A DNA stretch of 64,000 bases from an uncultured Acidimicrobiaceae bacterium (GCA_963834405.1 CAWIBX010000006.1:281577-345576); one strand, 5' to 3'. Positions 16,195 through 29,775 are shown, counted from the stretch's first letter. A program made the numbers and translations. The notes: generated by a model from the letters alone, not told the origin.

Positions 16195-17856
16195 TCAGGA
16201 CGCGACCGGGGTCGGCGTCGACGTCGGCACGAAGGCCAGGTATTCGTGGATCGAGCGGACCGCGGCCGAGCCTTCGCCGACCGCGGTGGCCACGCGCTTG
16301 GTCGACCCGGACCGAAGGTCGCCCACCGCGAAGAGTCCGGGGTGACTCGTTTCGAACGGGAGGGGCACGCGGTCCAACGCCGTCCACGGCCCGTCGAGGT
16401 ACTCGGCGGTGAGGGACCGGTCGGTGAGCACGAACCCATGCTCGTCGAGGGCGGCACAGCCCGAGATCCAACCGGACAGGGGATCGGCGCCGATGAACGA
16501 GAACAGCGCGGTCCCCGGCCGGGTCGCGACACCGTCCGGCCCCTGAATGTCGACTGTCTGCAGGCTCTCGTCACCGTCGATGGCGACGACCTGGCTCAAC
16601 GTGAGCACGTCGATGCGCGGATGATCCTCGAGTCGCTGGACGAGGTAGCCGGACATGCTGGCCCCGAGTTGTGCGGCCCGGATCACCACGGTGACCGCAC
16701 TGCCCTGGTCGGCCAAGAAGATGGCCGCCTGCCCGGCCGAATTTCCTCCGCCCACCACCACCACCGGGTTGCCGGCGCACATGCGTGCCTCCAATTCGGT
16801 GGCGGCGTAGTAGACGCCCTTGGCCTCGAATTCCTCGATGCGCTCGATGTCCAGGCGCCGGTAGCGGGCCCCGGTCGCTGCGATGACCGCCCGACCCGCC
16901 ACCTCCGACCCGTCAGAGAGCTCGACGACGAGATGTCCCGCCCGCTCGCGCAGACCGACGCCCTCGCAAGGGGCGGTCAGCTGCGCACCGAACTTCTCTG
17001 CCTGCACGAACCCTCTCTGCGCGAGATCGGCGCCCGAAATGCCGGTCGGGAACCCGAAGTAGTTCTCGATCCTGGAGCTCGTCCCGGCCTGCCCACCAGG
17101 GGCCACCATGTCGACGCCGAGTGTCCGCAGGCCTTCGGACGCGCCGTAGACGGCGGCCGCCAGGCCGGCCGGACCTCCCCCCACGATGACCAGATCGAAG
17201 CAGCGCCCGGGAAGGCGCTCGACGGTGAGGCCCAGGTACTCGGCGACCAGCCCCGGCGTCGCCCGGCGGATCACCTTTCCCGAGGAGACCGCGACCGGGA
17301 AGTCCGACGGCTCGAGGCCGTATTGCTCGACCATGGTCTCCACGAGCGGATCGCTGTCGGGGTCGAGCCACTCGTGGGGAATCTTCGTCCGCGACAGGAA
17401 CTCTCGCAGCTGCAGCACCTCGGGCGAGTAGCGAGAACCGATGACCCGGGTGGCGGTCTTGGCGTCGTTGGTGAGGTCGTTGCGGCGCGCCATGAAGGTG
17501 GTCAGGATCTTGTCGCTCAGCGCTTCTTGAATCGCCAGGATGTGCCGGAACTCCGCGCCCGGCACGGCCAGGACTTCGCTGTCCTCGACGGCCCGGGTGG
17601 AAACGAACACGCGCAGCCCGGTCAACAGGTTCAACTCGCCGAGAAATCGTCCCGGCCCGTGTGTGACGATGATCCGCTCCTCCCCGTCGACGTCCAACAC
17701 GACCTCGATCAACCCGGAGAGCACGACGTAGAAGTCATAGGTGGGATCACCGGCTCTGTAGAGGTACTCCCCCGCACGGACGACACGCCGCGTGCCATGC
17801 GGCTCCAATTCCGCGATTTCGGAATCGTCGAGAACCTGGATTACTTCGTCAGCCAT
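16195..17856 (-). CDS. cNMP-binding domain / thioredoxin-fold linker / TrxR-like FAD oxidoreductase fusion
   Basis: cNMP domain GRFLGELNLLTG. FAD site DLVIVGGGPAGLAAAVYGASEG. NAD(P) site VVVVGGGNSAGQAAIFL. The canonical CATCDG position reads AATELE. Confidence 0.85.
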   Translation of the reverse strand: MADEVIQVLDDSEIAELEPHGTRRVVRAGEYLYRAGDPTYDFYVVLSGLIEVVLDVDGEERIIVTHGPGRFLGELNLLTGLRVFVSTRAVEDSEVLAVPGAEFRHILAIQEALSDKILTTFMARRNDLTNDAKTATRVIGSRYSPEVLQLREFLSRTKIPHEWLDPDSDPLVETMVEQYGLEPSDFPVAVSSGKVIRRATPGLVAEYLGLTVERLPGRCFDLVIVGGGPAGLAAAVYGASEGLRTLGVDMVAPGGQAGTSSRIENYFGFPTGISGADLAQRGFVQAEKFGAQLTAPCEGVGLRERAGHLVVELSDGSEVAGRAVIAATGARYRRLDIERIEEFEAKGVYYAATELEARMCAGNPVVVVGGGNSAGQAAIFLADQGSAVTVVIRAAQLGASMSGYLVQRLEDHPRIDVLTLSQVVAIDGDESLQTVDIQGPDGVATRPGTALFSFIGADPLSGWISGCAALDEHGFVLTDRSLTAEYLDGPWTALDRVPLPFETSHPGLFAVGDLRSGSTKRVATAVGEGSAAVRSIHEYLAFVPTSTPTPVAS

Positions 17857-17908
17857 GGGGACCGTCTTCGATCTGACGGCCGTCATCACCGCCGTCGGGA
17901 TACGGATC

Positions 17909-18856
17909 CTATTGGGGCGACCCGAGTGCCCGATCAAGGTTGACCGCGGCGCTGATGAGGGCCAAATGGGTGAAGGCCTGCGGAAAGTTTCCTCTGGCTT
18001 CGCCGGTGACGGAGGTCTCCTCGGCGAACAGTCCCAGGTGGTTGGCGTACCCGAGCATGCTCTCGAAGACGAACCTGGCCTCGTCCAGACGGGACCTGTC
18101 CGACCTTCCCGCGCGCGTCATGGCGTCGACCAGCCAGAAGGAGCACATGTTGAAGGTCCCCTCGTCACCCGGAAGTCCGTCGGGGCTGGTGAGGGTGTTG
18201 TAGCGATAGACCAGGTTGTTGGCGACGAGGCCCCCTTCTTCGGGTGGTCGGTTGATGGCGTCGATGGTGGCCAACATCTTGGGGTCGGTCGGAGCTACGA
18301 AGAAAACGAGGGGCATCACAAGGACACTGGCGTCCAACGTGTCGCTGTCGTAGGCCTGCATGAACGCCTGGTGTTTGTCGCTCCATCCATGCGCCATGAT
18401 GTCCTCGTAAATCTGGTCACGCACGCGCAGCCATCGTTCGCGGTCGGCAGGGAACGAACGCGCGTCGGCAAGGCGCAAGGCCCGGTCGACGGCCACCCAG
18501 CACATGACCTTCGAGTACACCCAGTGCCGGCGGCCCCCACGTGTCTCCCAGATGCTTTCGTCCTCGCGCTGCCAGTTCTCACAGACCCAGTCGACGAATC
18601 GGCGAAGTGCGACCCATAGATCGAACGAGACGGGTGTGCCGTGCTTGTTGAACAGGTAGGCGGCATCGACGAGCTCGCCATAGATGTCGAGCTGTAATTG
18701 GCCTGCCGCGTCGTTGCCGACACGTACGGGGCGTGACTCCCGGTAGCCCCCGAGGTGGTTCAACTCCTCCTCAGCCATCAGGCGCCGGCCGTCGATGCCG
18801 TACATGATGGGGAGGGAGCCGTCAGGCCGTCGCCCTCGTTGCCAACTCGCTTCCAC
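17909..18856 (-). pseudogene. 3' fragment of a GH15 (glucoamylase/trehalase-type) glycoside hydrolase
   Basis: Only the C-terminal ~300 aa are present ([10 protein letters not shown]...[21 protein letters not shown]...[11 protein letters not shown]). The N-terminal half expected for this family is absent. Homology begins at the junction near 18830. Confidence 0.7.
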
Positions 18857-19313
18857 TGATCCCTTGCGGAAAGCCGAGGTAATTCTCGATCATGGAGGTC
18901 GTCCCCGCCTGACCCCCGGGCGCCAGTGATTCGATGGCTACGGCGCGCAAGCCCTCGGAGGCCGCGTACACCGCCGCCGCCAGCCCGGCGGGACCGGCGC
19001 CGACGATCGTCAGGTCGTACTCCGACCACATCGGCGCTGACACCATCCCCAGGCCAGCCGCCACGCTTTCCAGCGTGGCGGGAGCAAGCCGGTCGCCGTT
19101 GGGGAGGATACAGACGGGCAACTGGCCCGCGTCTGTCTCGTCGCCCTGCAGCAACGATGCAGCGCGCTCCGCATCGTCGACGTCGACCCACTCGTAGGGC
19201 ACGCCGTTGCGGCTGAGAAAGTCACGGATGCCGTAGCCGACCGCGGACGCCCGCTGCCCGAGCAAGACGACCTGAGGCGTGACGGAACGCGCGTCGTAAT
19301 CGATCATCGACAT
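18822..19313 (-). pseudogene. 5' fragment of a TrxR-like FAD oxidoreductase (paralog of 16195..17856)
   Basis: Thioredoxin-fold segment plus YDLTIVGAGPAGLAAAVYAASEG...[21 protein letters not shown], then a stop. The NAD(P) domain and C-terminal FAD half are missing. Confidence 0.7.
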
Positions 19314-19510
19314 GGCGCTCGACCTGCCTTCATGGTTTTCAGGCTCGCACACGTCGACCTGGTCGGACGCCTGCTCTGCGGAGGCCTGCCCAAGGAGTTG
19401 CTGATCCCACTCACCGAGTCGCTCGAAGCCACTTTTGACCACATTGTCCAGCACGGGACGCTTCCGGGCCCGGCCTCCGAGACATAATCACCGGCGCCCG
19501 TGCCTGACGA

Positions 19511-19867
19511 TTATGGGTGGAGCTGCAGCTGCCAATCGGCCGGAACCCGCCCGCTCGGTCCTGGGACAGTTTGATCAAGGGGGTGGTGCGTGGGCGGTGC
19601 GAGGTGCGGACCCGATACGTAATCTTCGGTCCGGTAGTCGTAGAACCAGTCCTCACCGGGCTCAAAGCTTGCGATGACGGGATGGCCCGTCCCGCGGGCG
19701 TGTTTGCTCGCATGCTGCTCAGGCGAGTTGTCGCAGCATCCGATGTGCCCGCACTGGGCGCAGCGTCGCAGGTGGAGCCACCAGCCGCCGGCGGCGTCAC
19801 ACTCGACGCATCCGGAACCGCTGGGTTCTGCGCTCGGGTCAATTGCCTGGTTGCTCACGTTAGCCAT
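19511..19867 (-). CDS. UBP-type zinc-finger protein
   Basis: CVECDAAGGWWLHLRRCAQCGHIGCCDNSPEQHASKHARGTGHPV, a Cys/His pattern of the zf-UBP fold. Confidence 0.8.
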   Translation of the reverse strand: MANVSNQAIDPSAEPSGSGCVECDAAGGWWLHLRRCAQCGHIGCCDNSPEQHASKHARGTGHPVIASFEPGEDWFYDYRTEDYVSGPHLAPPTHHPLDQTVPGPSGRVPADWQLQLHP

Positions 19868-19957
19868 CACCCCGGACAATAACGGGACGCTCGAACGCTT
19901 GAGACGTGAGAGGGATGCGATGTCGGCCGGCCGACCTTCGCACCCTCGTCCGCGGGG

Positions 19958-20803
19958 CTAGGGGCCCGGAGCGGGAACCCGGAGATCTGAGGAAGCTGCC
20001 GTGCCCATCCGAGCCTGCCACCAGTCGACGGGGACCACCCGCAACGCCAACGCGAGCGTGCCGCGGTCGAGGTCCTCGGCAAGTTGGGCGATCTGCACCA
20101 GCCGGTCAACGAGCAAATCATCGGTGATCTGACCCTCGATCTGCACGGCGCCGCTGGCGCGCGCCAGCCGTCCACGCCTGTGATCGTCCGGTGGACTCGA
20201 GCCGTCGAGAAGGCTGCCTAACCATGCCACGTCGGTTGCGAGTTCTACGTGGCGATCGATGACCTCTGCGTAGAGGTCGGAATTGAGCATCACCGAGGCC
20301 CACCGGCCGAGCATTTGGTCGCCGTGCAGGACTGAAGCTGCTATCTCCTCGTGCAAACCGTGGCGCCTCCTGGGATCGGTGACCAACTCTTTCAACGCGG
20401 GCGCCAGCTGCGTTTGGTCCCTCACGATGGGCGTGCCCACCTCGACGAGCGAGGCGGGGGTGACGTCGGACGGCAGGAGGCCGCTTTGCTCCAAAATGCC
20501 CGTCCATATGAACCGGGCGTTGCGCACCAGATCCAACAAGACGTACTGAGCCAACACGCTCCAGCGCCGGCGCCTGCGGCGTTCCAGCGCCTCGTTGAAG
20601 ATGCCGGCCGACAGCATCACGACGAGGATGCTCGCCGACAGGCCCGCCAGCAGCGCGTGCCCCTGCCAAAAGGAGTCGTCGAGGACATCGGAGAGGATTC
20701 CGGCGGTCAGCGCCAGCGCGGCGACTGCTGCCAGAACCCGCGTGCCCAGCAGATAGGCGTCGATCGAATCCAAGCGCAGGGGGCCGTTGCCGTGACGGGT
20801 CAC
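19958..20803 (-). CDS. Hypothetical protein, two N-terminal TM helices plus helical cytoplasmic domain
   Basis: Coding-like composition across 281 aa. TM helices VLAAVAALALTAGIL and LLAGLSASILVVMLSAGIF are followed by RRRRRRW. No family recognised. Confidence 0.55.
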   Translation of the reverse strand: MTRHGNGPLRLDSIDAYLLGTRVLAAVAALALTAGILSDVLDDSFWQGHALLAGLSASILVVMLSAGIFNEALERRRRRRWSVLAQYVLLDLVRNARFIWTGILEQSGLLPSDVTPASLVEVGTPIVRDQTQLAPALKELVTDPRRRHGLHEEIAASVLHGDQMLGRWASVMLNSDLYAEVIDRHVELATDVAWLGSLLDGSSPPDDHRRGRLARASGAVQIEGQITDDLLVDRLVQIAQLAEDLDRGTLALALRVVPVDWWQARMGTAASSDLRVPAPGP

Positions 20804-20889
20804 TGGCGCGCCAGGTTAGGCCCACGCACGTGTTTATTTGGTCGGCATGCTCGCCGGGAGCGGCGCCACCAACGTCCGACGGAAGAGGC

Positions 20890-21177
20890 TCAGGCCAGCA
20901 CGCCCCGAATGTCCTCCAGCGACAGCTCGGAAGTCGCCTGCACCCCGCACTGGGTGCACTCTGGGCTGTGCCGCCAGGAGCAGATCATCCGGGTGCCCTT
21001 CTCGTTGAGCAACACGGTGAAGGCGTCCGAGTCCACGGCCAATTCGAGCCTGGCGTACGGCCGCCATGAGGTGACGACGGTGCGGTCCTGCACCTCTATG
21101 CCCTTCAGGATCCTGCGAAAGCGCAGGTGATCTGTGTCGAACACCCAGGTGCTGTTGCAGGACTCGAGAACGGTCAT
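20890..21177 (-). CDS. Small hypothetical Cys-containing protein (95 aa)
   Basis: ATG at 21177 (MTVLESCNSTWVFDTDHLRF...). The upstream part of the listed ORF lies in a lower-G+C non-coding stretch. No family recognised. Confidence 0.4.
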   Translation of the reverse strand: MTVLESCNSTWVFDTDHLRFRRILKGIEVQDRTVVTSWRPYARLELAVDSDAFTVLLNEKGTRMICSWRHSPECTQCGVQATSELSLEDIRGVLA

Positions 21178-21334
21178 TGATACCCCGGCCGAAGACATAG
21201 GACCAGTCTGCAGCCTGTGGATAAGAGTCCGATCAGAAGGACCTTGTGATTCTGTGACGATCGGCTGTAACAGCGCTCTGCCAAGCCAAGTCGGATAATT
21301 CGCTCGAGCATTCAGGGCAATCATCTTGCCCGCA

Positions 21335-21631
21335 TCAGGCCACCGCCTTTCCAGCGACATACACCCCGAGCATTGCGATTCCCATGAGCAAGACCCAGAC
21401 ATCGGTGAGACGGCGAAGCACGACGGGGGCGGCACGTACCTCCATGAACTCGCGCATGATGATCCGGACCTTGATCAACGCGAGGCAGATGGCGGCCACG
21501 GTGACCACCGTGCTCGCGGTGGGAAATCCCTGATGCGTGGCCGCGTGATCGATCCACAAGTACGCGAGCGAAATGGCCACCAGGATCAACCACACCCCGA
21601 AGAGCCGTTTGTTGAAGCCGCTTTCCACCAT
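21335..21631 (-). CDS. Prokaryotic cytochrome oxidase subunit IV (CyoD/QoxD)-like small membrane protein
   Basis: 98 aa with three hydrophobic helices (LFGVWLILVAISLAYLWI, VVTVAAICLALIKVRIIM, VWVLLMGIAMLGVYVAG). Its ATG shares one nucleotide with the upstream TGA. Confidence 0.65.
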   Translation of the reverse strand: MVESGFNKRLFGVWLILVAISLAYLWIDHAATHQGFPTASTVVTVAAICLALIKVRIIMREFMEVRAAPVVLRRLTDVWVLLMGIAMLGVYVAGKAVA

Positions 21632-22242
21632 CACCTCACCACGTAGAGCAGGGCGAAGATCAACACCCAGAAGAAGTCGACCGAGTGCCAATAAGTGGCA
21701 CAGGTCTCCACGGTCAGTTGAGAACGCCGCTTCTCGCCTGACAGCTGGTACACGAGCACCCCGAGCACGACGAAGCCGACCAGCAGGTGCACGAAGTGGA
21801 TCGCGGTCAGGAAGAAGTAGTACTGGAAGAACTGGCTACTGGTGAACGTGTCCCCCATGCGGATCAGCCGGACCCACTCGACGATCTTGAGGATGAGGAA
21901 CACCAGCCCGAAACCGGCGGTCAGGAACGCCTCCCGCCGGGCACGTTCGAAACGCCCCGCCCGGGCGTGCTGGACACATCGGGCGACGGCCCACGAGCTC
22001 GAGAGCAGGACGATCGTGTCGAGCACGCCCAGCCACAGCAGCAGGTGGGACTGTCCGAGCAGGAATGCCTGCTCGTGCTGTGTCCGGTTGAACAGGTAGA
22101 CGCAGAAATACGAGGTGAACACGAGGGATTCGAACAGCACGAAGAACCAGATGTCGCGCCCGCCGGGAACGTGCTCCGGCGAACCCTCGTCCGGCGACCC
22201 CTCCTCCGACGCGTGGGACACGTCGCGTTCGGTCGTCGTCAT
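21631..22242 (-). CDS. Heme-copper oxidase subunit III (CyoC/NorE)-like protein
   Basis: 203 aa, five-TM pattern with YYFFLTAIHFVHLLVG and ATYWHSVDFFWVLIFALLYV, hallmarks of subunit III. Confidence 0.85.
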   Translation of the reverse strand: MTTTERDVSHASEEGSPDEGSPEHVPGGRDIWFFVLFESLVFTSYFCVYLFNRTQHEQAFLLGQSHLLLWLGVLDTIVLLSSSWAVARCVQHARAGRFERARREAFLTAGFGLVFLILKIVEWVRLIRMGDTFTSSQFFQYYFFLTAIHFVHLLVGFVVLGVLVYQLSGEKRRSQLTVETCATYWHSVDFFWVLIFALLYVVR

Positions 22243-23015
22243 GGCGCCAGGAACTCGGCCAATACGCGACCTTGACCTTCCGCCGGCGGCAGGTCAGGCA
22301 TCGGCCCCGTGCCGAAGTCCTCGCGGAGGATCATGTTGCGCAGCAACATGATGAAGGCTCCGGTGTACATACCGAAGACGGCCACGTTGATCCACCAGGC
22401 GATCACGCCGTTCCAGGCGAAGACTCCGGCGTGGAAGATCCATGAGGGTGCGACTACAACCTCGGTCAGCCCGTTGCACAGGTTGAGGTAGGCGAACCAC
22501 ACGGGAAAGACGCGGTTCTTGTCGAGCAGGATGGCCAGCATCCAGATCAACGAGCCGATGAGGAAGACGCCCATGGTGCCGGAGAAGGACAGGAACCCGA
22601 GGTCGTAGAGCCACCGGAGGGTCTCCGGGTTGCGATCGGGCCGGAAGGCACCCACCGTCATGGCCACGCAGATGAACAAGAACCCGGGGACCGCACTGAC
22701 GGCGTAGAGGATCAGGTACGAGTAGGCGAAGGCACGGCTGACCGACATGCGCCGGATGGAGTAGGTGATCAGTGCGATCGACGTGGCGGAGAGCCCGCCC
22801 AGGACGAAGATCAGCGCAAAGCCGATGAGCAGGCCCTCGTGGCGGTTGGCGAACCACTCCACCACTTGATGGGGGGTGTACCACGGCTTCCCGGGCGGCT
22901 GGGTGCGCGTGATGATGAAGAAGACGACGGTGTAGAGGGAATAGAAGCCGATGGTGGCGTACCACGCCAGCCAGAGCTCCCGCTTGGGATCGTCGAGAAG
23001 CGCAGGTCTCTTCAC
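22239..23015 (-). CDS. Polytopic membrane protein, paralog B of unknown family
   Basis: GTG at 23015 overlaps the upstream TGA. Clear paralogy to 23012..23719: GAFRPDRNPETLRWLYDLGFLSF vs AAFRPYRPPALTQLYNDLAWITF, and GVFAWNGVIAWW vs GPFAWNGFLSFW. Confidence 0.7.
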   Translation of the reverse strand: MKRPALLDDPKRELWLAWYATIGFYSLYTVVFFIITRTQPPGKPWYTPHQVVEWFANRHEGLLIGFALIFVLGGLSATSIALITYSIRRMSVSRAFAYSYLILYAVSAVPGFLFICVAMTVGAFRPDRNPETLRWLYDLGFLSFSGTMGVFLIGSLIWMLAILLDKNRVFPVWFAYLNLCNGLTEVVVAPSWIFHAGVFAWNGVIAWWINVAVFGMYTGAFIMLLRNMILREDFGTGPMPDLPPAEGQGRVLAEFLAP

Positions 23016-23719
23016 GCCGACGCTTGCTCCGCCAGCCGATGGCGCCCGATCGCCTGCCCCAACACCACGGCCATGACGATGAGCCAGACGGCGATGGCGA
23101 CGTTCTTGACCCAGAACGACAGGAAGCCGTTCCAGGCGAAAGGTCCGGTGAGCGTCAGGCCGGCAAAGGCGGCCGGTACCAAAGCCATGGCGACGAGGAG
23201 GTTGAAGTGGCCGACCCACCGGGCGAACACGGGTCGCGCCTGCTCGTCGAGATAGATCGCCACGGCCAGGAAGAGGCAGAGGGCGACGAGGAAGGGCACG
23301 CCACAGGTGAACGTGATCCAGGCCAGGTCGTTGTAGAGCTGGGTGAGTGCGGGGGGACGATAGGGCCGGAACGCCGCCAGCAGCCAAAAGATCGTGGCCG
23401 TGAGAAACGCGATCGGCGCAGCACCGGCGACCCCGATCACGCAGTACCGGAGTATCGGGGTGCGGTGCGCCATGCCCCGCATGCGCTCCACGATCAGCAT
23501 CAGAATCGGGATCAGCGCGACGCAGAACCAGTTGAACAGGATCATGCTGTAGCGGACCCGCGATGTGTGGTCGGCATAGAACGCGGCCACCCTCCGCGCC
23601 GACCACTGCGGGGACATGGGCGGCAGGAACCCCGGGAAGAGGAAGAAGGCCGCGATCCAGATGATCGCCACGCCGGGCAGCGCCCAGAAGATGATCAGTT
23701 CGGCCGTCGTTCGTCTCAC
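23012..23719 (-). CDS. Polytopic membrane protein, paralog A of unknown family
   Basis: 235 aa with about 7 hydrophobic helices. First gene of the four-gene array. Divergent from the TetR gene at 23801. Confidence 0.7.
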   Translation of the reverse strand: MRRTTAELIIFWALPGVAIIWIAAFFLFPGFLPPMSPQWSARRVAAFYADHTSRVRYSMILFNWFCVALIPILMLIVERMRGMAHRTPILRYCVIGVAGAAPIAFLTATIFWLLAAFRPYRPPALTQLYNDLAWITFTCGVPFLVALCLFLAVAIYLDEQARPVFARWVGHFNLLVAMALVPAAFAGLTLTGPFAWNGFLSFWVKNVAIAVWLIVMAVVLGQAIGRHRLAEQASA

Positions 23720-23800
23720 CGCGCTCCCCCCGATCGGGCCACCACCACACAGAAGATAGCCGATCGACTACCCCAGGCAAGTGGGCTTAGATTTGGGGAC

Positions 23801-24388
23801 ATGGCTCCGTCGAGAACCGCCACTCGAGACAGACGAATGCGGAATCCTCCAACAGCTGCGCAGACCCGCATCATCGAAGCGGCGCTCCGAGAGTTCACGA
23901 AAAACGGCGTCGGGGGGACGTCTTTGCAGATGATCGCCGACGACATCGGCGTCACGAAGGCAGCCGTCTACCACCAGTACAAGACCAAGGCCGAAATTGT
24001 CCGAGCTGTCGCCGGCGCCGAGTTCGACCGCCTCGAATCGGTCCTCGATATAGCCGAATCCGAGGTGGACCAAGATCGGGCGCGCCAACTGGCGTTGACG
24101 ATGATCATCGATCTGGCCGTGGAGCGCCGCCGGGAGAACAGCACCATTCTCACCGACCCGCTCGTGGGTCGGCTCTTTGCGCGGGATCAGCGACCGCGAA
24201 AGGTCCTGAGTCGCCTGAACCGCCTACTCATGGGCCCAGATGGAGAACCGGACTCGGAAATCGCAACGGTCATGTTGACCGCGGCCATCAGCGGTGCCGT
24301 CATGCATCCGCTGGTTATCCGTCGCAACGACGAGACCCTGCGGACGCAACTCAGGACTCTGGCGGAGCGCTTCCTCGGAATCAGTTGA
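23801..24388 (+). CDS. TetR family transcriptional regulator
   Basis: IIEAALREFTKNGVGGTSLQMIADDIGVTKAAVYHQYKTKAEI HTH block. ATG at 23801. Confidence 0.85.
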   Translation: MAPSRTATRDRRMRNPPTAAQTRIIEAALREFTKNGVGGTSLQMIADDIGVTKAAVYHQYKTKAEIVRAVAGAEFDRLESVLDIAESEVDQDRARQLALTMIIDLAVERRRENSTILTDPLVGRLFARDQRPRKVLSRLNRLLMGPDGEPDSEIATVMLTAAISGAVMHPLVIRRNDETLRTQLRTLAERFLGIS

Positions 24389-25595
24389 TGTGGATCCCAG
24401 AGATCGCCCGGCTGATCACGAGCCGCTGAATCTCCGAGGTCCCCTCGAAGATCGTGTAGATCTTCGAGTCGCGGTGCCACTGCTCGACCGGGTTTTCCCG
24501 GACGTAGCCGTACCCACCCAAAATCTGGATGGCCTGCTCGGTCACCCACACGGCGTTCTCGCCGGCGTAGAGCTTGGACATGGAGCCCTCGCCGTTCTCG
24601 AACTTCTTGCCGGTGCTCGCCATGTTGGCCGCCCGCCAGACCAGCAGGCGGGAGGCGTCGGTGTGCATCTTCATGTCGGCCAGCTTGAAGGCGATGGCCT
24701 CGTTCTCGATGATCAGCTTGCCGAACTGCTTGCGCTCCTTGGCGTAGTCCAGGGCGAACTCGTAGGCCGCGCGTGCGATCCCCACCGCCTGCGCGCCCAC
24801 GATCGGACGTGACGCCTCGAACGTCGCCATCGCCGCCTGGGTCGAGGTCTTCTTGCCCTCCTTGGCCCGGGCCAGGCGCGCGTCGAGCTTCTCCTTGCCG
24901 CCGAGCAGGCAGCGCCCGGGCACGCGGCAGTCGTCGAGGATGACCTCGGCCGTGTGCGAGGCGCGAATGCCCATCTTCTTGAACTTCTGGCCCTGCGAGA
25001 TCCCCTTCGTGCCCTCGGGCACCACGAAACTGGCCTGGCCCCGGCTGCCGAGCTCGGGGTCGACCGACAGGACGAGCACGTGCGTGTTGGCGATGCCGCC
25101 GTTGGTGATCCACGTCTTGGTGCCGTTCAGCACCCACTCGTCCTTAGCCTCGTCGTAGACGGCGCGTGACTTCAGCGACGAGACGTCGGAGCCGGCATCG
25201 GGCTCGGACACGCCGAAGGCCGCCAGCTTTATGTCGTCGGGCGTCCCGAAGCACTGCGGGATCCACTCGCCGATCTGCTCGGGCGTCCCGTTGGCGAAGA
25301 TGCCCGCCACGGCGAGCGTCGAGCCGAAGATCGCCAACGCGATGCCGGCGTCACCCCAGCTCATCTCCTCGTTGACGAGGCACATGAGCAGGCCGGTCGG
25401 GTCCGAGAACGCCTGGGCGACGAAGTCGAAGGAGTACAGCCCGATCTTGGCCGCCTCCTCGATGATGGGCCACGGCGTCTCCTCCCGCTCGTCCCACTCG
25501 CGGCCGGCGGGGCGGATCGTGTTCTCTGCGAACTCGTGGACCCACTTGGTGATCTGGAGCTGATCCTCGTTCAGTTCGAGCGAGAAGTCGGACAT
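24381..25595 (-). CDS. Acyl-CoA dehydrogenase
   Basis: ILGGYGYVRENPVEQWHRDSKIYTIFEGTSEIQR C-terminal signature. ATG at 25595 (MSDFSLELNEDQ). Confidence 0.9.
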   Translation of the reverse strand: MSDFSLELNEDQLQITKWVHEFAENTIRPAGREWDEREETPWPIIEEAAKIGLYSFDFVAQAFSDPTGLLMCLVNEEMSWGDAGIALAIFGSTLAVAGIFANGTPEQIGEWIPQCFGTPDDIKLAAFGVSEPDAGSDVSSLKSRAVYDEAKDEWVLNGTKTWITNGGIANTHVLVLSVDPELGSRGQASFVVPEGTKGISQGQKFKKMGIRASHTAEVILDDCRVPGRCLLGGKEKLDARLARAKEGKKTSTQAAMATFEASRPIVGAQAVGIARAAYEFALDYAKERKQFGKLIIENEAIAFKLADMKMHTDASRLLVWRAANMASTGKKFENGEGSMSKLYAGENAVWVTEQAIQILGGYGYVRENPVEQWHRDSKIYTIFEGTSEIQRLVISRAISGIHIN

Positions 25596-25783
25596 CTTTC
25601 TGAGCCCTCCTTGGGCGGCCCGGCCCGTTGGCCGGGTGCTCGGTCGGGCGCCGGACCACCCCCGGACCGGCCCCGCCACCTCCTGCGGCCACCCGGTCCC
25701 GACGCCTTCCTTTGTTACCATACAGTAACCTACCAGCTGGGACCGGGTCCAGTACCACCCCTGACCTGCCGATTCGGCCCCGC

Positions 25784-27199
25784 TCAGCGGTGGATGGCCG
25801 TGCCCGAGGGGGTGTCCTCCACCGTCCAGCCCAGCGCCGTCAGCTCGTCGCGCAGGGCGTCGGCCCGGGCGAATTCCTTCGCCCGTCTCGCCTCGTCGCG
25901 TGCTGCCACCAATTGGGCAGTCACCTCGTCCACTTCGCCGGACTCCTCCCGGAGGGGCAGACCGAGTGTACCCAGTAACACCGCCACCGTGTGCGCCAGC
26001 CGGATCCCTTCCTCCTCGTTACCCGCGTCGGCGGCGCTGTGCGCCGCCGTCACCAGTTCGAAGATTCCGGCCAGCGCGCCCGGGGTGTCGAGGTCGTCGT
26101 CCATCCGGGTGCGGAACGCGGCCACCGCTTCCACGTCCACCGTGCTCGCCTCCACCCCTCCCGCGTCGCGCGCCTCCACCATGACCCCATCCGGGCTGGC
26201 CGCCAGTAGGTCGCCCTCGCCGAAGCGGCGCGCCAGGGCGTCGAGCCTCTCCAGCGCCTTCTCGGCGTCAGCCAGCGTGTCGGGTGTCACCTCAATGGGC
26301 GAGCGGTAGTGCGCCCGCAAGACAAGCAGGCGATAGGCCCGGGCGTCGTAGCGCTCCAGCAGATCGGCCAGCGTGGTGAAGTTGCCCAGCGACTTCGACA
26401 TCTTCTCCGAGCCCACCACGACCCAGCCGTTGTGCATCCAGTGGCGGGCGAACACCTTCCCGTCGGCGATCGCCTGCGCCCGCTCGTTCTCGTGGTGCGG
26501 GAACATCAGGTCTTGCCCGCCGCCGTGCAGGTCGAAACCCTCGCCCAAGAGGTCGAGCGACATGACGACGCACTCGGTGTGCCAGCCCGGGCGCCCCGGT
26601 CCCCAGGGGGAGTCCCAGCTCGGCTCGCCCTCCTTGGCCTTCTTCCACACCGCGAAGTCGAGCGGCGAGCGCTTCTCCTCGTTCGCCTCCACCCGGGCCC
26701 CCGCCCCCGCCTGCAGCGACTCGAGCGACTGGTGGGCCAGCAGCCCGTAGCCCGGGACCATGTCCACCTCCAGGTAGACCCCGTCACTCGTCTCGTAGGC
26801 CACGCCCTTGTCCACGAGCTCCTTCACCAGCTCGACCATGTCCGCGATGTACTCGGTGGCGTGGGGCACCTCGTCGGGCCGGAGATCCCCCAGCGCCCCC
26901 ATGTCCTCCCACCAGCGCGCCTCGAACTCGGCCGCCACGTCCGGCTCGGTGCGCCCGAGCGTGTTGGCCCGCTGAATGATGTTGTCGTCGACGTCGGTCA
27001 CGTTGGCGACGTGGTGGACCCGCAGGCCGGTGAAGCTCAGGTACCGCCGCAGGACGTCGAAGGTCAGGTTGGCCCGGCCGTGCCCGATGTGGGGCAGGTC
27101 GTAGACCGTCGGGCCGCACACGTACATCGACACCTCGCCCTCGGTGCGCAGCTCCAGGGGCCGCACGGTGCCGCTCGCGGTGTCGTACAGGTGCAGCAT
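25784..27199 (-). CDS. cysS: Cysteine--tRNA ligase
   Basis: MYVCGPTVYDLPHIGHGR (HIGH) and KMSKSLGN. Confidence 0.95.
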   Translation of the reverse strand: MLHLYDTASGTVRPLELRTEGEVSMYVCGPTVYDLPHIGHGRANLTFDVLRRYLSFTGLRVHHVANVTDVDDNIIQRANTLGRTEPDVAAEFEARWWEDMGALGDLRPDEVPHATEYIADMVELVKELVDKGVAYETSDGVYLEVDMVPGYGLLAHQSLESLQAGAGARVEANEEKRSPLDFAVWKKAKEGEPSWDSPWGPGRPGWHTECVVMSLDLLGEGFDLHGGGQDLMFPHHENERAQAIADGKVFARHWMHNGWVVVGSEKMSKSLGNFTTLADLLERYDARAYRLLVLRAHYRSPIEVTPDTLADAEKALERLDALARRFGEGDLLAASPDGVMVEARDAGGVEASTVDVEAVAAFRTRMDDDLDTPGALAGIFELVTAAHSAADAGNEEEGIRLAHTVAVLLGTLGLPLREESGEVDEVTAQLVAARDEARRAKEFARADALRDELTALGWTVEDTPSGTAIHR

Positions 27200-27219
27200 C
27201 CAGGTACGGTAACCCGATC

Positions 27220-29775
27220 ATGTCGACGACCGTGACCGGCGCGCCCCGCGTGCCCGAGAAGCCGACGCTGGACGGCCTGGAGGCCCGTTGGGCCGTTGTC
27301 TGGGAGGACGACGGCACCTACCGCTTCCGTCCCGGCGCCACCCGGGCGGAGGTGTTCTCCATCGACACCCCGCCGCCGACCGTCTCGGGCTCGCTGCACA
27401 TGGGCTCGGTCTTCGGCTACGTCCAGACCGACGCCATCGTCCGCTACCGGCGCATGCGCGGCTGGAAGGTCTTCTACCCGATGGGCTGGGACGACAACGG
27501 GTTGCCGACGGAGCGGCGGGTCCAGACCTACTTCGGGGTCAGGTGCGACCCCTCGCTCCCCTACGACCCCGACTTCCGGCCCCCCGACGAGCCGGGGAAG
27601 GACGACATCGGCGTCAGCCGACCGAACTTCATCGCGCTCTGCCACGAGCTGACGGCGCGCGACGAGCAGGCCTTCGAGGAGCTGTGGCGGCGCGTCGGGC
27701 TTTCGGTCGACTGGAAGCTCGGCTACGCCACCATTGACGACCGCGCCCGCCGCACGAGCCAGCGCATGTTCCTCCACAACCTGGCTCGGGGCGAGGCCTA
27801 TCAGTCGGAGGCACCGACGCTGTGGGACGTCGACGACCAGACCGCCGTGGCCCAGGCGGAAATGGAGGACCGGGAGCAGCCGGGCGCCTACTACCGGCTG
27901 CGCTTCGACGACATCGACATCGAGACCACGCGCCCCGAGTTGGTGGCCGCCTGCGTCGCGCTGGTGGCGCACCCCGACGACGAACGCTACGCCGATCGCT
28001 TCGGCACCACCGTGCGCACGCCGCTCTTCCGCGTGGAGGTGCCCGTGCTGGCCCACCGCCTGGCCGAGCCCGACAAGGGAACGGGCATCGCCATGATCTG
28101 CACCTTCGGCGATGTCACCGACGTGGTCTGGTGGCGTGAGCTCGACCTGCCGACGCGCAACATCGTGACGCGCTCGGGTCGCCTCACCGAGGTGCCGCCG
28201 CCCGGCGTCCCCGACGGGGAGGCCTGGCGGGCCATCGCCGGCCGCACCGTCAAGCAGGCCCAGCGGGCCATGGTCGAGCTGCTCGCCGCGTCGGGCGACC
28301 TGGTCGGCGAGCCCCGCGCCATCACCCACCCTGTCAAGTTCTACGAGCGCGGAGCGCGACCGCTCGAGATCGTCACCAGCCGGCAGTGGTTCATCCGCAA
28401 CGGCGGGCGGGACGAGACGCTCCGCCGCGAGCTGCTGGAGCAGGCGGGCGAGCTCGATTGGCACCCGCCCTACATGAGGGTGCGCTACGACGACTGGGTC
28501 AATGGCCTCAACGGCGACTGGTTGATCAGCCGGCAGCGCTTCTTCGGCGTGCCGGTCCCCCTCTGGTACCCGGTCGGCGCCGACGGCGAGCCCGACCACA
28601 CCGCGCCCATCGTGCCCGACGAGTCGCTCCTCCCGGTCGACCCGACCACCGACGTGCCCGACGGGTTCGCGCCCGAGCAGCGCGGCGTCCCCGGCGGCTT
28701 CGTCGGCGACCCCGACGTCATGGACACCTGGGCCACCTCGTCGGTCACGCCCCAGATCGCGTGCCGGTGGGTGGACGACCCCGAGCTGTTCGCGGCGACG
28801 TTCCCGATGGACCTGCGTCCCCAGGGGCCCGAGATCATCCGGACCTGGCTGTTCTCGACGCTGTTGCGTTCGCACCAGGAGCACCACGTCTTGCCCTGGA
28901 AGCACACGACCATCAACGGCTGGATCCTCGACCCCGACCGCAAGAAGATGTCCAAGTCGCGGGGCAACGTCGTGACGCCGATGGCGCTGCTCGAGGAGTA
29001 CGGCTCCGACGCCGTGCGTTACTGGGCCTGCAACGGCCGCCCCGGCACCGACACCGCCCTGGACATCGGGGTCATGAAGATCGGGCGCCGTCTCGCCATC
29101 AAGATGCTGAACGCGTCCAAGTTCGCGCTGGGCCGGCTCGGGGACGGCCCGGTCCCGGGACTCTACTCGGTGCACGAGGCGCTCGACACCGCGCTGCTGG
29201 CGCAGCTGGCCCGGCTGGTCCAGACGGCGACGGCGGCCCACGAGGGCTTCGACTACGCACGGGCGCTCGAGCTGACCGAGGGCTTCTTCTGGTCGTTCTG
29301 CGACGACTACGTCGAGCTGGTGAAGACCCGCGCCTACGGCGAGGGCTCGGCGGCCGGGGCGGACTCCGCCCGCGCCACGCTGGCCATCGCCCTTTCCGCG
29401 CTGCAGCGGCTCTTCGCGCCGTTCTTGCCCTTCGTGACAGAGGAGGTCTGGAGCTGGTGGCGGCAGGGCTCGGTGCACACGGCCCCCTGGCCCACTGTTG
29501 ACGAGGTCGGGCCGCACGCCGGTGCCGAGCCCGGCGTGCTCGACGTGGCCGCGAAGGTGCTCGGCGCCATCCGGCGCGAGAAGACCGCACAGAAGCGCTC
29601 CATGCGCGCCCGGGTGGCGACCCTCACGGTGACCGCACCGCGGGCTCTGCTTCTCGACGTCGAGGCGGCACGCGCCGACATCGTGGACGCGGGCGGCGTG
29701 GACGAGTTCGTGACGCAGGAGGACGAGGAAGCGGAGGACCTCCGTGTCGACGTCGAGCTGGCGGACGGGGCCTGA
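27220..29775 (+). CDS. valS: Valine--tRNA ligase (actinobacterial/archaeal-type, 851 aa)
   Basis: PPPTVSGSLHMGSVFGY (HIGH-like), GWDDNGLPTE, KMSKSRGNVV. Confidence 0.95.
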   Translation: MSTTVTGAPRVPEKPTLDGLEARWAVVWEDDGTYRFRPGATRAEVFSIDTPPPTVSGSLHMGSVFGYVQTDAIVRYRRMRGWKVFYPMGWDDNGLPTERRVQTYFGVRCDPSLPYDPDFRPPDEPGKDDIGVSRPNFIALCHELTARDEQAFEELWRRVGLSVDWKLGYATIDDRARRTSQRMFLHNLARGEAYQSEAPTLWDVDDQTAVAQAEMEDREQPGAYYRLRFDDIDIETTRPELVAACVALVAHPDDERYADRFGTTVRTPLFRVEVPVLAHRLAEPDKGTGIAMICTFGDVTDVVWWRELDLPTRNIVTRSGRLTEVPPPGVPDGEAWRAIAGRTVKQAQRAMVELLAASGDLVGEPRAITHPVKFYERGARPLEIVTSRQWFIRNGGRDETLRRELLEQAGELDWHPPYMRVRYDDWVNGLNGDWLISRQRFFGVPVPLWYPVGADGEPDHTAPIVPDESLLPVDPTTDVPDGFAPEQRGVPGGFVGDPDVMDTWATSSVTPQIACRWVDDPELFAATFPMDLRPQGPEIIRTWLFSTLLRSHQEHHVLPWKHTTINGWILDPDRKKMSKSRGNVVTPMALLEEYGSDAVRYWACNGRPGTDTALDIGVMKIGRRLAIKMLNASKFALGRLGDGPVPGLYSVHEALDTALLAQLARLVQTATAAHEGFDYARALELTEGFFWSFCDDYVELVKTRAYGEGSAAGADSARATLAIALSALQRLFAPFLPFVTEEVWSWWRQGSVHTAPWPTVDEVGPHAGAEPGVLDVAAKVLGAIRREKTAQKRSMRARVATLTVTAPRALLLDVEAARADIVDAGGVDEFVTQEDEEAEDLRVDVELADGA

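Follow-up and report, generated by a model that had tools for sequence, protein, structure and literature searches.

A conserved four-gene membrane operon in Acidimicrobiaceae joins subunit III/IV-like proteins to an unnamed superfamily of six-helix proteins

The NorE/NorF (NirO/NirP) pair assists nitric oxide (NO) reductase in Paracoccus and Rhodobacter. In heme-copper oxidases, similar proteins are known as subunits III and IV (CyoC/CyoD of bo3, QoxC/QoxD, CtaE of aa3), and subunit III has been proposed to feed O2 or protons to the enzyme through a lipid-filled cleft. To our knowledge, the role of subunit III, subunit IV and NorE/NorF is still debated, because every study of these proteins has dealt with them in association with a heme-copper catalytic subunit. 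We report here a four-gene operon (A-B-C-D, positions 21335-23719, minus strand) on a 64-kb stretch of DNA from an uncultured Acidimicrobiaceae bacterium (the window, i.e., the whole stretch that was analysed). Its last two genes, C and D, encode a NorE/NorF-like pair, and its first two, A and B, encode paralogs belonging to what we call the X superfamily, i.e., the protein clusters matched by a profile built from A and B. The locus is a real, selected and translationally coupled four-gene operon, accompanied by a TetR gene of its own and by a position-specific palindrome; it probably encodes an undescribed membrane complex, and this complex is neither a respiratory oxidase nor the remnant of one. 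Among described systems the NorE/NorF pair comes closest, followed by the CyoC/CyoD-type subunits III/IV; the linkage to a heme-copper catalytic subunit, by which these systems are defined, was not found here.

The four genes are chained through overlapping stop and start codons: the A stop and B start share GTGA (23015-23012), B and C share ATGA (22242-22239), and C and D meet in TGATG, where the single base 21631 belongs both to the C stop and to the D ATG. All three junctions lie where a preliminary description of this DNA, made without database searches, had placed them. Relatives were scanned in a one-genome-per-species collection, in which a B relative is encoded in 306 stretches (Acidimicrobiia, Frankia, Mycobacterium, Streptomyces, Nocardia), the closest ones, at 90-95% identity, being from soil Acidimicrobiaceae metagenome-assembled genomes (MAGs). 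The best 80 of the 306 stretches were examined as four-gene loci; they span Acidimicrobiia, Frankia, Pseudofrankia, Parafrankia, Mycobacterium, Mycolicibacterium, Streptomyces, Nocardia and Rugosimonospora, together with one contig binned as Burkholderiales. Every complete locus has the A-B-C-D order unbroken (80/80), and the 4-nucleotide (nt) overlap is conserved between A and B in 75 and between B and C in 71 of them, while the C/D junction is a 4-nt overlap in 40 loci and a spacing of 2-4 nt in 34. Protein identity across the 80 loci is 47-95%, with 60-95% for A and B and 62-95% for B on its own. In the distant loci A and B are conserved at least as well as C and D, e.g., about 62-68% for A/B versus 52-65% for C/D in Mycobacterium. 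Whether the order recurs in other genomes was a question raised in the preliminary description; it does so in all 80 loci, and the linkage reaches distant single-copy relatives in other phyla as well. Two short contigs in non-actinobacterial bins, one of 3.7 kb in a Burkholderiales bin (L037) and one of 1.4 kb in a Methylomirabilis bin (P0097/L004), carry an actinobacterial-type operon at 74-80% identity to the window, which is a matter of mis-binning or of recent horizontal transfer.

A motif scan for oxidase subunit I, subunit II and NorB gave nothing within 5-8 kb in 95 loci, and the intact cyoABCD-like operon that had been considered for the relatives is not seen among them. The same kind of scan (GHPEVY, WxHHMF, the CuA motif, and HLWVE and GHHYY of NorB; a motif scan, not a profile search) had zero matches in any frame of the 64-kb window, in agreement with the earlier statement that subunits I and II are missing from it. 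Besides TetR, no consistently linked fifth gene was found in the 80 loci; P450 genes occur in 19 of them, which is near a rough chance estimate for these P450-rich genomes.

Both subunit-type assignments, along with the cyoC-cyoD order, had been proposed from the DNA, and the profile searches agree with them. Protein C passes the Pfam COX3 model (PF00510; 37.5 bits versus a cutoff of 23.8, E=3.2e-9, profile positions 81-255 of 258) and has five hydrophobic segments; protein D passes COX4_pro (PF03626; 35.0 bits versus 28.9, E=1.8e-8, profile positions 2-70 of 72) and has three. The gene order is III then IV, with one base shared. The helix core and signatures of subunit III are present in C, which carries YYFFLTAIHFVHLLVG and YWHSVDFFWV, and its FES, IHFVH and YWHSVD are conserved across relatives; the conserved residues are an acidic one in transmembrane helix 1 (TM1), K-x3-E in TM3, H-x2-H in TM4, and WHxVD. 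C aligns end to end with the solved subunit III chains 6adq_G, 6kob_C and 1fft_C (CtaE, QoxC and CyoC, respectively), and its best PDB sequence match is CtaE of M. smegmatis (6adq_G, E=1.5e-14). The best NCBIfam match is likewise aa3_CtaE_Actin, at 74.2 bits versus a cutoff of 190; the cutoffs of CyoC (68.9 versus 223.75), QoxC (53 versus 239.9) and PRK10663 (49.3 versus 340) are missed too, and being so far under the CtaE, CyoC and QoxC cutoffs, C is a member of the family and an ortholog of none of these proteins. Protein D has a conserved W, a K in TM2 and FMExR; its start is supported by a Pseudofrankia D gene called at 97 amino acids, and a PDB sequence search with D gave no match. Overall, C and D share with the oxidase subunits III/IV the Pfam families, the III-then-IV order and the end-to-end alignment of C; they differ from them in the scores of C (53-74 bits versus equivalog cutoffs of 190-240), in the missing PDB relative of D by sequence, and in that subunit I/II motifs were found neither at this locus nor in the 95 related loci. 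The locus is thus not a heme-copper oxidase operon of the cyoABCD, qoxABCD or ctaCDEF kind: the subunit I/II motifs are lacking, and A and B have no invariant His.

The likeness to NorE/NorF is closer. Profiles of C and D detect a COX3+COX4 pair that adjoins hemerythrin, NorQ and NorD genes on a plasmid of Thiothrix fructosivorans (E ~1e-61 with C and 6e-6 with D), a result that bears out the NorE/NorF analogy drawn in the preliminary description. C is 35% identical to the COX3-like protein of Thiothrix, and the residues common to C/D and this NorQ/NorD-linked pair are K-x3-E, H-x2-H and WHxVD in C, and the K and FM in D. C and D form an adjacent pair of a COX3-like and a small membrane protein just as NorE and NorF do; in both cases a five-helix COX3-like gene is followed by a small three-helix gene, and neither pair has cofactor ligands or comes with its own catalytic subunit. 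The differences lie in the company that the pair keeps. No linkage to norCB, norQD or nir was found, i.e., nor/nir genes were not seen within 5-8 kb in the 95 loci, and none is among the neighbouring genes identified by Pfam or by annotation at the loci sampled. The constant partner here is the X family and not NorCB, the regulator is of TetR type, and the detected hosts are mostly Actinomycetota.

A and B had been described as mutual paralogs that fit no family, and further searches leave this unchanged. The two align at 25% identity over 199 residues in BLASTP (E=9e-13) and with an hhalign probability of 98.8%, and neither has a match in Pfam, NCBIfam, PADLOC or a PDB sequence search. In a 5.8-billion-protein collection A has 1,962 homologs and B has 979, all named 'hypothetical'; the best 120 of the 1,962 are 72-91% identical to A and the best 120 of the 979 are 71-94% identical to B. 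Six long transmembrane helices and one short helix were found in each protein, in place of the approximately seven transmembrane helices counted earlier. In the AlphaFold2 model of B made with a diverse alignment (predicted local distance difference test, pLDDT, 92.4; predicted template modelling score, pTM, 0.84), the short helix sits in the first loop. Foldseek found no fold relative of this model in the PDB (best E=0.8), and an earlier model with a pLDDT of 73 was likewise without a relative there (best E ~0.7-0.8).

The X superfamily comprises at least 1,655 clusters (50% identity) at E<=0.001, and 985 at E<=1e-10, with most members 230-270 amino acids long. It is present in Mycobacterium, Frankia, Streptomyces, Rhodococcus and sphingomonads, frequently amid genes for the degradation of hydrophobic compounds, and it is without a name, a solved fold or an annotation. 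Its profile gave a chance match only among PDB sequences (E=7.9), and when 105 representatives were compared with Pfam, NCBIfam and PADLOC families, only weak DUF4386 matches appeared and nothing else recurred. The members of DUF4386 (Pfam, PF14329) are polytopic proteins of ~210-250 amino acids, like A and B in size; weak matches to it were obtained with 7 of the 105 representatives (best E=3.4e-5), and for two database relatives a PF14329 match had been precomputed. Neither A nor B matches at E up to 1, and the threshold of 27.6 bits does not place them in DUF4386; one relative reaches 18.6 bits, which is likewise below it. Such a membership would in any case explain nothing, since DUF4386 has no known function. 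The idea that X is a diverged COX3 or COX4 was rejected as well (hhalign probability 0.3-0.4%).

The near-invariant residues of X are Pro, Arg, Asp, Trp and Gly, close to helix ends. The superfamily has no invariant His, Cys or Met, which makes heme or copper binding by X unlikely; the single aligned His (ADH/NRH) to which the preliminary description had drawn attention is conserved in neither the A family, the B family nor the superfamily. A retains the signature residues of the superfamily, i.e., PPxxP, RPxR, ND, D, PVFxRW (PVFPRW) and GPFAWNG. In B, parts of this signature are relaxed, e.g., the Arg of PVFPRW is lost, and the B-specific invariant residues include K11-R12-E13, C116 and T184-E185, the latter inside TM5. 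Single-copy X proteins all score higher against the A profile than against the B profile, and in an AraC-linked metagenome locus an A-like gene precedes a B-like one. The duplication that gave rise to A and B is old and marks off the four-gene clade, in which A kept the superfamily signature and B specialised. Gene products in which A and B (P0391, 493 amino acids) or A, B and C (P0392, 612 amino acids) appear fused in Acidimicrobiaceae MAGs were considered as Rosetta-stone evidence and discarded, as they contain stretches translated out of frame and are assembly indel or frameshift artefacts; the partial X+C products P0245, P0322 and P0338 look similar and were not used. Gene calls in such MAGs need care.

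Beyond the four-gene form, single-copy X at 23-29% identity adjoins COX3+COX4 in Rhodococcus, Pseudonocardia, sphingomonads and Diaphorobacter. The order X-C-D is found in plasmid records of Mycobacterium branderi, Novosphingobium resinovorum, Rhodococcus oxybenzonivorans, Pseudonocardia and N. pentaromativorans. In Sphingobium herbicidovorans the COX3/COX4 pair lies three genes away from X, and two Rhodococcus koreensis plasmids have the permuted order COX3-COX4-X (L103, 2964-4672; L104, 2583-4450), with X fragmented on the small plasmid. The pair is missing from one of ten X records, a Streptomyces plasmid with an insertion sequence element just downstream of X. A reverse search from C led to four plasmid loci, three of which have X directly upstream (Diaphorobacter, Rhodococcus sp. 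ZPP and Streptomyces CA-256286); the fourth, with COX3+COX4 adjoining hemerythrin, NorQ and NorD, is of the NorE/NorF type and without X. Among metagenome contigs with canonical X, C+D come after X at 18 of the 44 loci (41%) for which both flanks are available, and at 27 of the 57 (47%) that have 900 nt or more of downstream sequence. The arrangements among sampled representatives are AraC-A-B-C-D, X-C-D, tandem X-X with AveC-like and APH-type kinase genes, an X::DUF1214 fusion, and stand-alone X. The linkage of X to the NorE/NorF-like COX3/COX4 genes is robust and ancient and survives changes of gene order, and the ancestral unit is X-COX3-COX4 with a single X. C and D look accessory, as X also occurs alone.

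Further neighbours were seen at a few X loci. In one, the X fused to DUF1214 (L098, 6001-8118) adjoins sulfotransferase and luciferase-like genes and a TetR gene. In another, a TetR-controlled row (L096, 3240-6953) contains an APH-type kinase, an AveC-like gene and two tandem X, with no COX3/COX4 on the sequence available. On two Rhodococcus megaplasmids (L087 and L094), X-COX3-COX4 adjoins Mce/MlaD lipid-transport operons; this may be chance, as these plasmids have several mce operons, or a hint at lipid handling.

The operon is accompanied by a divergent TetR gene, and its product matches Pfam TetR_N clearly (E=6.8e-13, 48.6 bits versus a cutoff of 24). A TetR homolog (38-92% identity) is found in 53 of the 80 genome-scan loci, and in 57 of 84 when four further loci (L001-L004) are counted, mostly upstream of A and on the opposite strand. 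The spacer between TetR and A contains a 14-bp palindrome, the sole match to the consensus at up to two mismatches in the 64-kb window. Perfect copies of TAGCCGATCGGCTA, one to four of them, occupy the TetR-A spacer in loci of Acidimicrobiia, Frankia, Mycobacterium and Streptomyces, and the palindrome persists across these classes although the distant TetR proteins are only 38-51% identical to that of the window. Palindromes with no more than one mismatch number 79 in 1.2 Mb of related loci; 74 of them are located upstream of A at a distance of up to 350 nt, and 54 of 79 loci have such a site. The palindrome was not found in the distant three-gene loci. The palindrome appears to fill the spacer of a possible promoter, and mycobacterial loci have TTGAC(C)-N17-TAGCTT around the same palindrome. 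A scan of 21100-24000 for consensus promoters and terminators called no sites, and the promoter-like TTGCCT-16-TATCTT matches 8 of 12 positions only. TetR presumably binds the palindrome and represses the operon. The arrangement resembles TetR/TetA and AcrR/AcrAB-type units, which share the divergent TetR_N regulator and a 14-bp palindrome in the common spacer, apparently inside the promoter. Unlike in those units, the controlled genes match no known pump or pathway; the ligand-binding domain of the window TetR has no match to a Pfam TetR_C model.

Table 1. Features of the operon and its regulatory region in the window.
Feature	Position	Strand	Description
Gene A	23012-23719	-	235 amino acids, 6 transmembrane helices; canonical member of the X superfamily; GTG start, preceded by GGGAG
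Gene B	22239-23015	-	258 amino acids, 6 transmembrane helices; diverged A paralog of the four-gene form; GTG start
Gene C	21631-22242	-	203 amino acids, 5 transmembrane helices; heme-copper-oxidase subunit III homolog (NorE/CyoC/CtaE-like)
Gene D	21335-21631	-	98 amino acids, 3 transmembrane helices; prokaryotic subunit IV family (CyoD/NorF-like); ATG start
TetR-family regulator	23801-24388	+	195 amino acids, divergent from the operon; Pfam TetR_N
Acyl-CoA dehydrogenase	24381-25565	-	Convergent with the TetR gene, 8-nt overlap at the TetR 3' end
Palindrome, candidate TetR operator	23757-23770		14 bp, TAGTCGATCGGCTA on the operon strand; one mismatch to the consensus TAGCCGATCGGCTA
Possible operon promoter	23753-23780	-	TTGCCT-16 nt-TATCTT, palindrome fills the spacer; read by eye, tentative

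We consider it most plausible, with a probability of roughly 0.45, that the operon encodes a membrane complex free of cofactors, in which A and B form the core and C and D a NorE/NorF-like accessory pair, and which handles a hydrophobic compound; its function is inferred. The locus would then be a self-contained five-gene module consisting of a TetR repressor, a palindromic operator and the coupled A-B-C-D operon. Most likely, A-D would form one integral-membrane complex of ~20 helices with no redox cofactor. The core may be a pseudo-symmetric heterodimer of the six-helix paralogs A and B, onto which the C/D pair docks; a 12-helix A/B core beside C/D would echo the 12-helix subunit I beside subunits III and IV. 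In the ancestral X-COX3-COX4 form X was presumably a homodimer, and X was duplicated in this lineage. A lipophilic ligand may release TetR from the palindrome inside the promoter, and the A/B core may bind, move or convert a hydrophobic compound in the membrane, our preferred guess being that the compound is translocated, or is passed to or taken over from soluble catabolic enzymes. C and D might take a stabilising, lipid-cleft role, as subunits III/IV do beside subunit I. It is the regulators across X loci (TetR, AraC and HxlR types) and the recurrent neighbours that point to the handling of hydrophobic small molecules in the membrane; these neighbours are P450, Rieske, luciferase-like and FAD monooxygenase genes, short-chain dehydrogenases/reductases (SDR), hydrolases, APH-type kinases, sulfotransferases and acyl-CoA enzymes. 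The preliminary description had already suggested an uncharacterised membrane complex that re-uses the III/IV scaffold, and the lack of any known family for A and B, the conserved linkage and the lack of a cyoABCD-like relative support this, with assembly itself as the presumed step.

Several points weigh against this reading. Function is its weakest step; binding or translocation is favoured, and a cofactor-free enzyme is nearly as likely. No transporter, enzyme or sensor homology was found for the proteins, and the module contains no energy-coupling component. TetR is the only consistently linked gene, and the evidence from neighbours is soft because catabolic genes are abundant in these genomes (P450 genes, as said, are near estimated chance). 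The conservation of A and B is far above that of typical xenobiotic transporters, and an enzyme or a tightly packed machine fits it at least equally well. The buried conserved charges (E185 of B; E38, K117 and E121 of C; K54 of D) could mean ion or proton movement, and that A-D assemble into one complex at all is something we infer.

It is somewhat unlikely, and still to be taken seriously, that A and B (X) are a cofactor-free membrane enzyme whose substrate is lipophilic, for instance an isomerase, cyclase, hydratase or oxygenase, and that C and D supply this enzyme with O2 or protons via a lipid-filled cleft. The very high conservation across classes, down to many invariant polar residues inside the helices of B (62-95% identical), speaks for it, and the near-invariant Asp and Arg of the superfamily could act as acid/base catalysts. 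Some relatives adjoin AveC-like, NTF2-like, epoxide-hydrolase and oxygenase genes, and the detected hosts belong to taxa known mainly as aerobic soil and water bacteria. On the other hand, neither homology to a known enzyme nor a PDB fold match was found, no consistently linked gene points to a pathway, and the loss in B of the signature Arg of PVFPRW fits a non-catalytic partner and identifies no catalytic site.

That the operon provides conditional accessory or replacement subunits for an oxidase or NO reductase encoded elsewhere, with C and D swapping in and A and B serving as assembly or tethering factors, we regard as improbable. C is a true COX3 homolog whose closest solved relative and best NCBIfam match are both the actinobacterial CtaE, NorE/NorF-type pairs are accessory to an enzyme encoded by other genes, and C and D have a detectable relationship to the NorQ/NorD-linked pair. 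Against these stand the scores of C, far under every equivalog cutoff, and the family of D: in actinobacterial aa3 oxidases subunit IV belongs to the CtaF family, which differs from COX4_pro. Oxidase or nor genes were not found within 5-8 kb in the 95 loci, whereas X is the constant partner across Actinomycetota and Proteobacteria and also occurs without C/D, and control by TetR or AraC is unlike respiratory regulation.

A proton or ion channel, or another device linked to the proton motive force, which would use the buried charged residues, seems to us more improbable still. The charges listed above are indeed conserved and lie in predicted helices (E185 in TM5 of B), but E185 is missing from A and from the single-copy X proteins, those of C and D are common to the NorE/NorF-like pair of Thiothrix and hence not specific to this system, and there is no likeness to known ion-translocating folds. 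Finally, a decayed cyoABCD- or ctaCDEF-type remnant with two degenerate or spurious upstream open reading frames (ORFs), for which only the III-then-IV order and the missing subunits I/II speak, is refuted by the census of 80 and 95 loci, in which A and B are 60-95% identical with overlaps intact and no relative has subunit I/II motifs or NorB motifs at this place, by the ~1,000-2,000 homologs of each protein, and by the lack of relation between A/B and C/D (hhalign probability <1%).

What is new here is the finding of subunit III/IV-type accessory proteins with a non-oxidase partner, and there is a substantial chance of a new class of membrane machine. We put forward tentatively that cofactor-free membrane machines built around X make up a widespread class, unrecognised so far, which recruited the III/IV pair independently of heme-copper chemistry. 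If this is true, subunits III/IV and NorE/NorF have a generic, transferable function, e.g., as a lipid-lined conduit or stabiliser for gases, protons or hydrophobic substrates, and it could be studied free of oxidase catalysis. A III/IV-like pair under strong selection beside an unrelated partner is a natural experiment on the intrinsic role of III/IV. The conserved TetR and operator offer an experimental handle, i.e., once an inducer is found, the substrate is likely to follow. In a literature search of incomplete coverage no paper was found on X, the X-COX3-COX4 module or the operator, nor any that mentions DUF4386; a prior description may thus exist.

The surroundings of the operon are as the preliminary description had them as regards the divergent TetR gene and the convergent acyl-CoA dehydrogenase, for both of which Pfam calls and coordinates agree; the 8-nt overlap between these two genes is identical in ~14 close Acidimicrobiaceae loci. 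The lower G+C that had been remarked on is real, at 0.637 in the operon versus 0.703 in the rest of the window. It lies mostly at codon positions 1 and 2, reflecting the hydrophobic amino-acid composition, and G+C at third codon positions (GC3) is only slightly lower (0.82-0.89 in the operon genes versus 0.93-0.95 in neighbouring genes), TetR with a GC3 of 0.74 being the only clearly atypical gene. Horizontal transfer was considered on this ground and set aside, as a drop owed mostly to amino-acid composition is by itself a weak argument.

Directly downstream of D, 19958-21330 has the lowest G+C of the area (0.59-0.63). Its two minus-strand ORFs (20890-21324 and 19958-20803) have no Pfam match and no homolog in the 84 related loci, and synteny with even the closest Acidimicrobiaceae stops right after D; this segment may be a strain-specific insertion. 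Next to it, the minus-strand ORF at 19511-19879 (122 amino acids) encodes a UBP-type zinc finger (zf-UBP, E=9e-16) that is found in only one of the related loci (L008). Of a pyridine-nucleotide-disulphide oxidoreductase, the minus-strand ORF at 18822-19454 (210 amino acids) contains the FAD-binding N-terminus alone. The glycoside hydrolase 15 ORF that adjoins it directly (17909-18856) aligns with profile positions 79-426 of 427 only. A rearrangement in this lower-G+C region is suggested by the truncated look of both ORFs. Further on, 16195-17937 (minus strand, 580 amino acids) encodes a fusion of a cyclic-nucleotide-binding domain with a pyridine-nucleotide-disulphide oxidoreductase (Pfam cNMP_binding and Pyr_redox_2). 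On the other side of the operon, the minus-strand ORF at 25784-27199 is read as CysS (cysteinyl-tRNA synthetase) from its HIGH and KMSKS motifs, and 27220-29775 on the plus strand is a class I aminoacyl-tRNA synthetase, confirmed by Pfam; the genes of 24381-29775 are ordinary housekeeping ones with the usual G+C of ~0.70.

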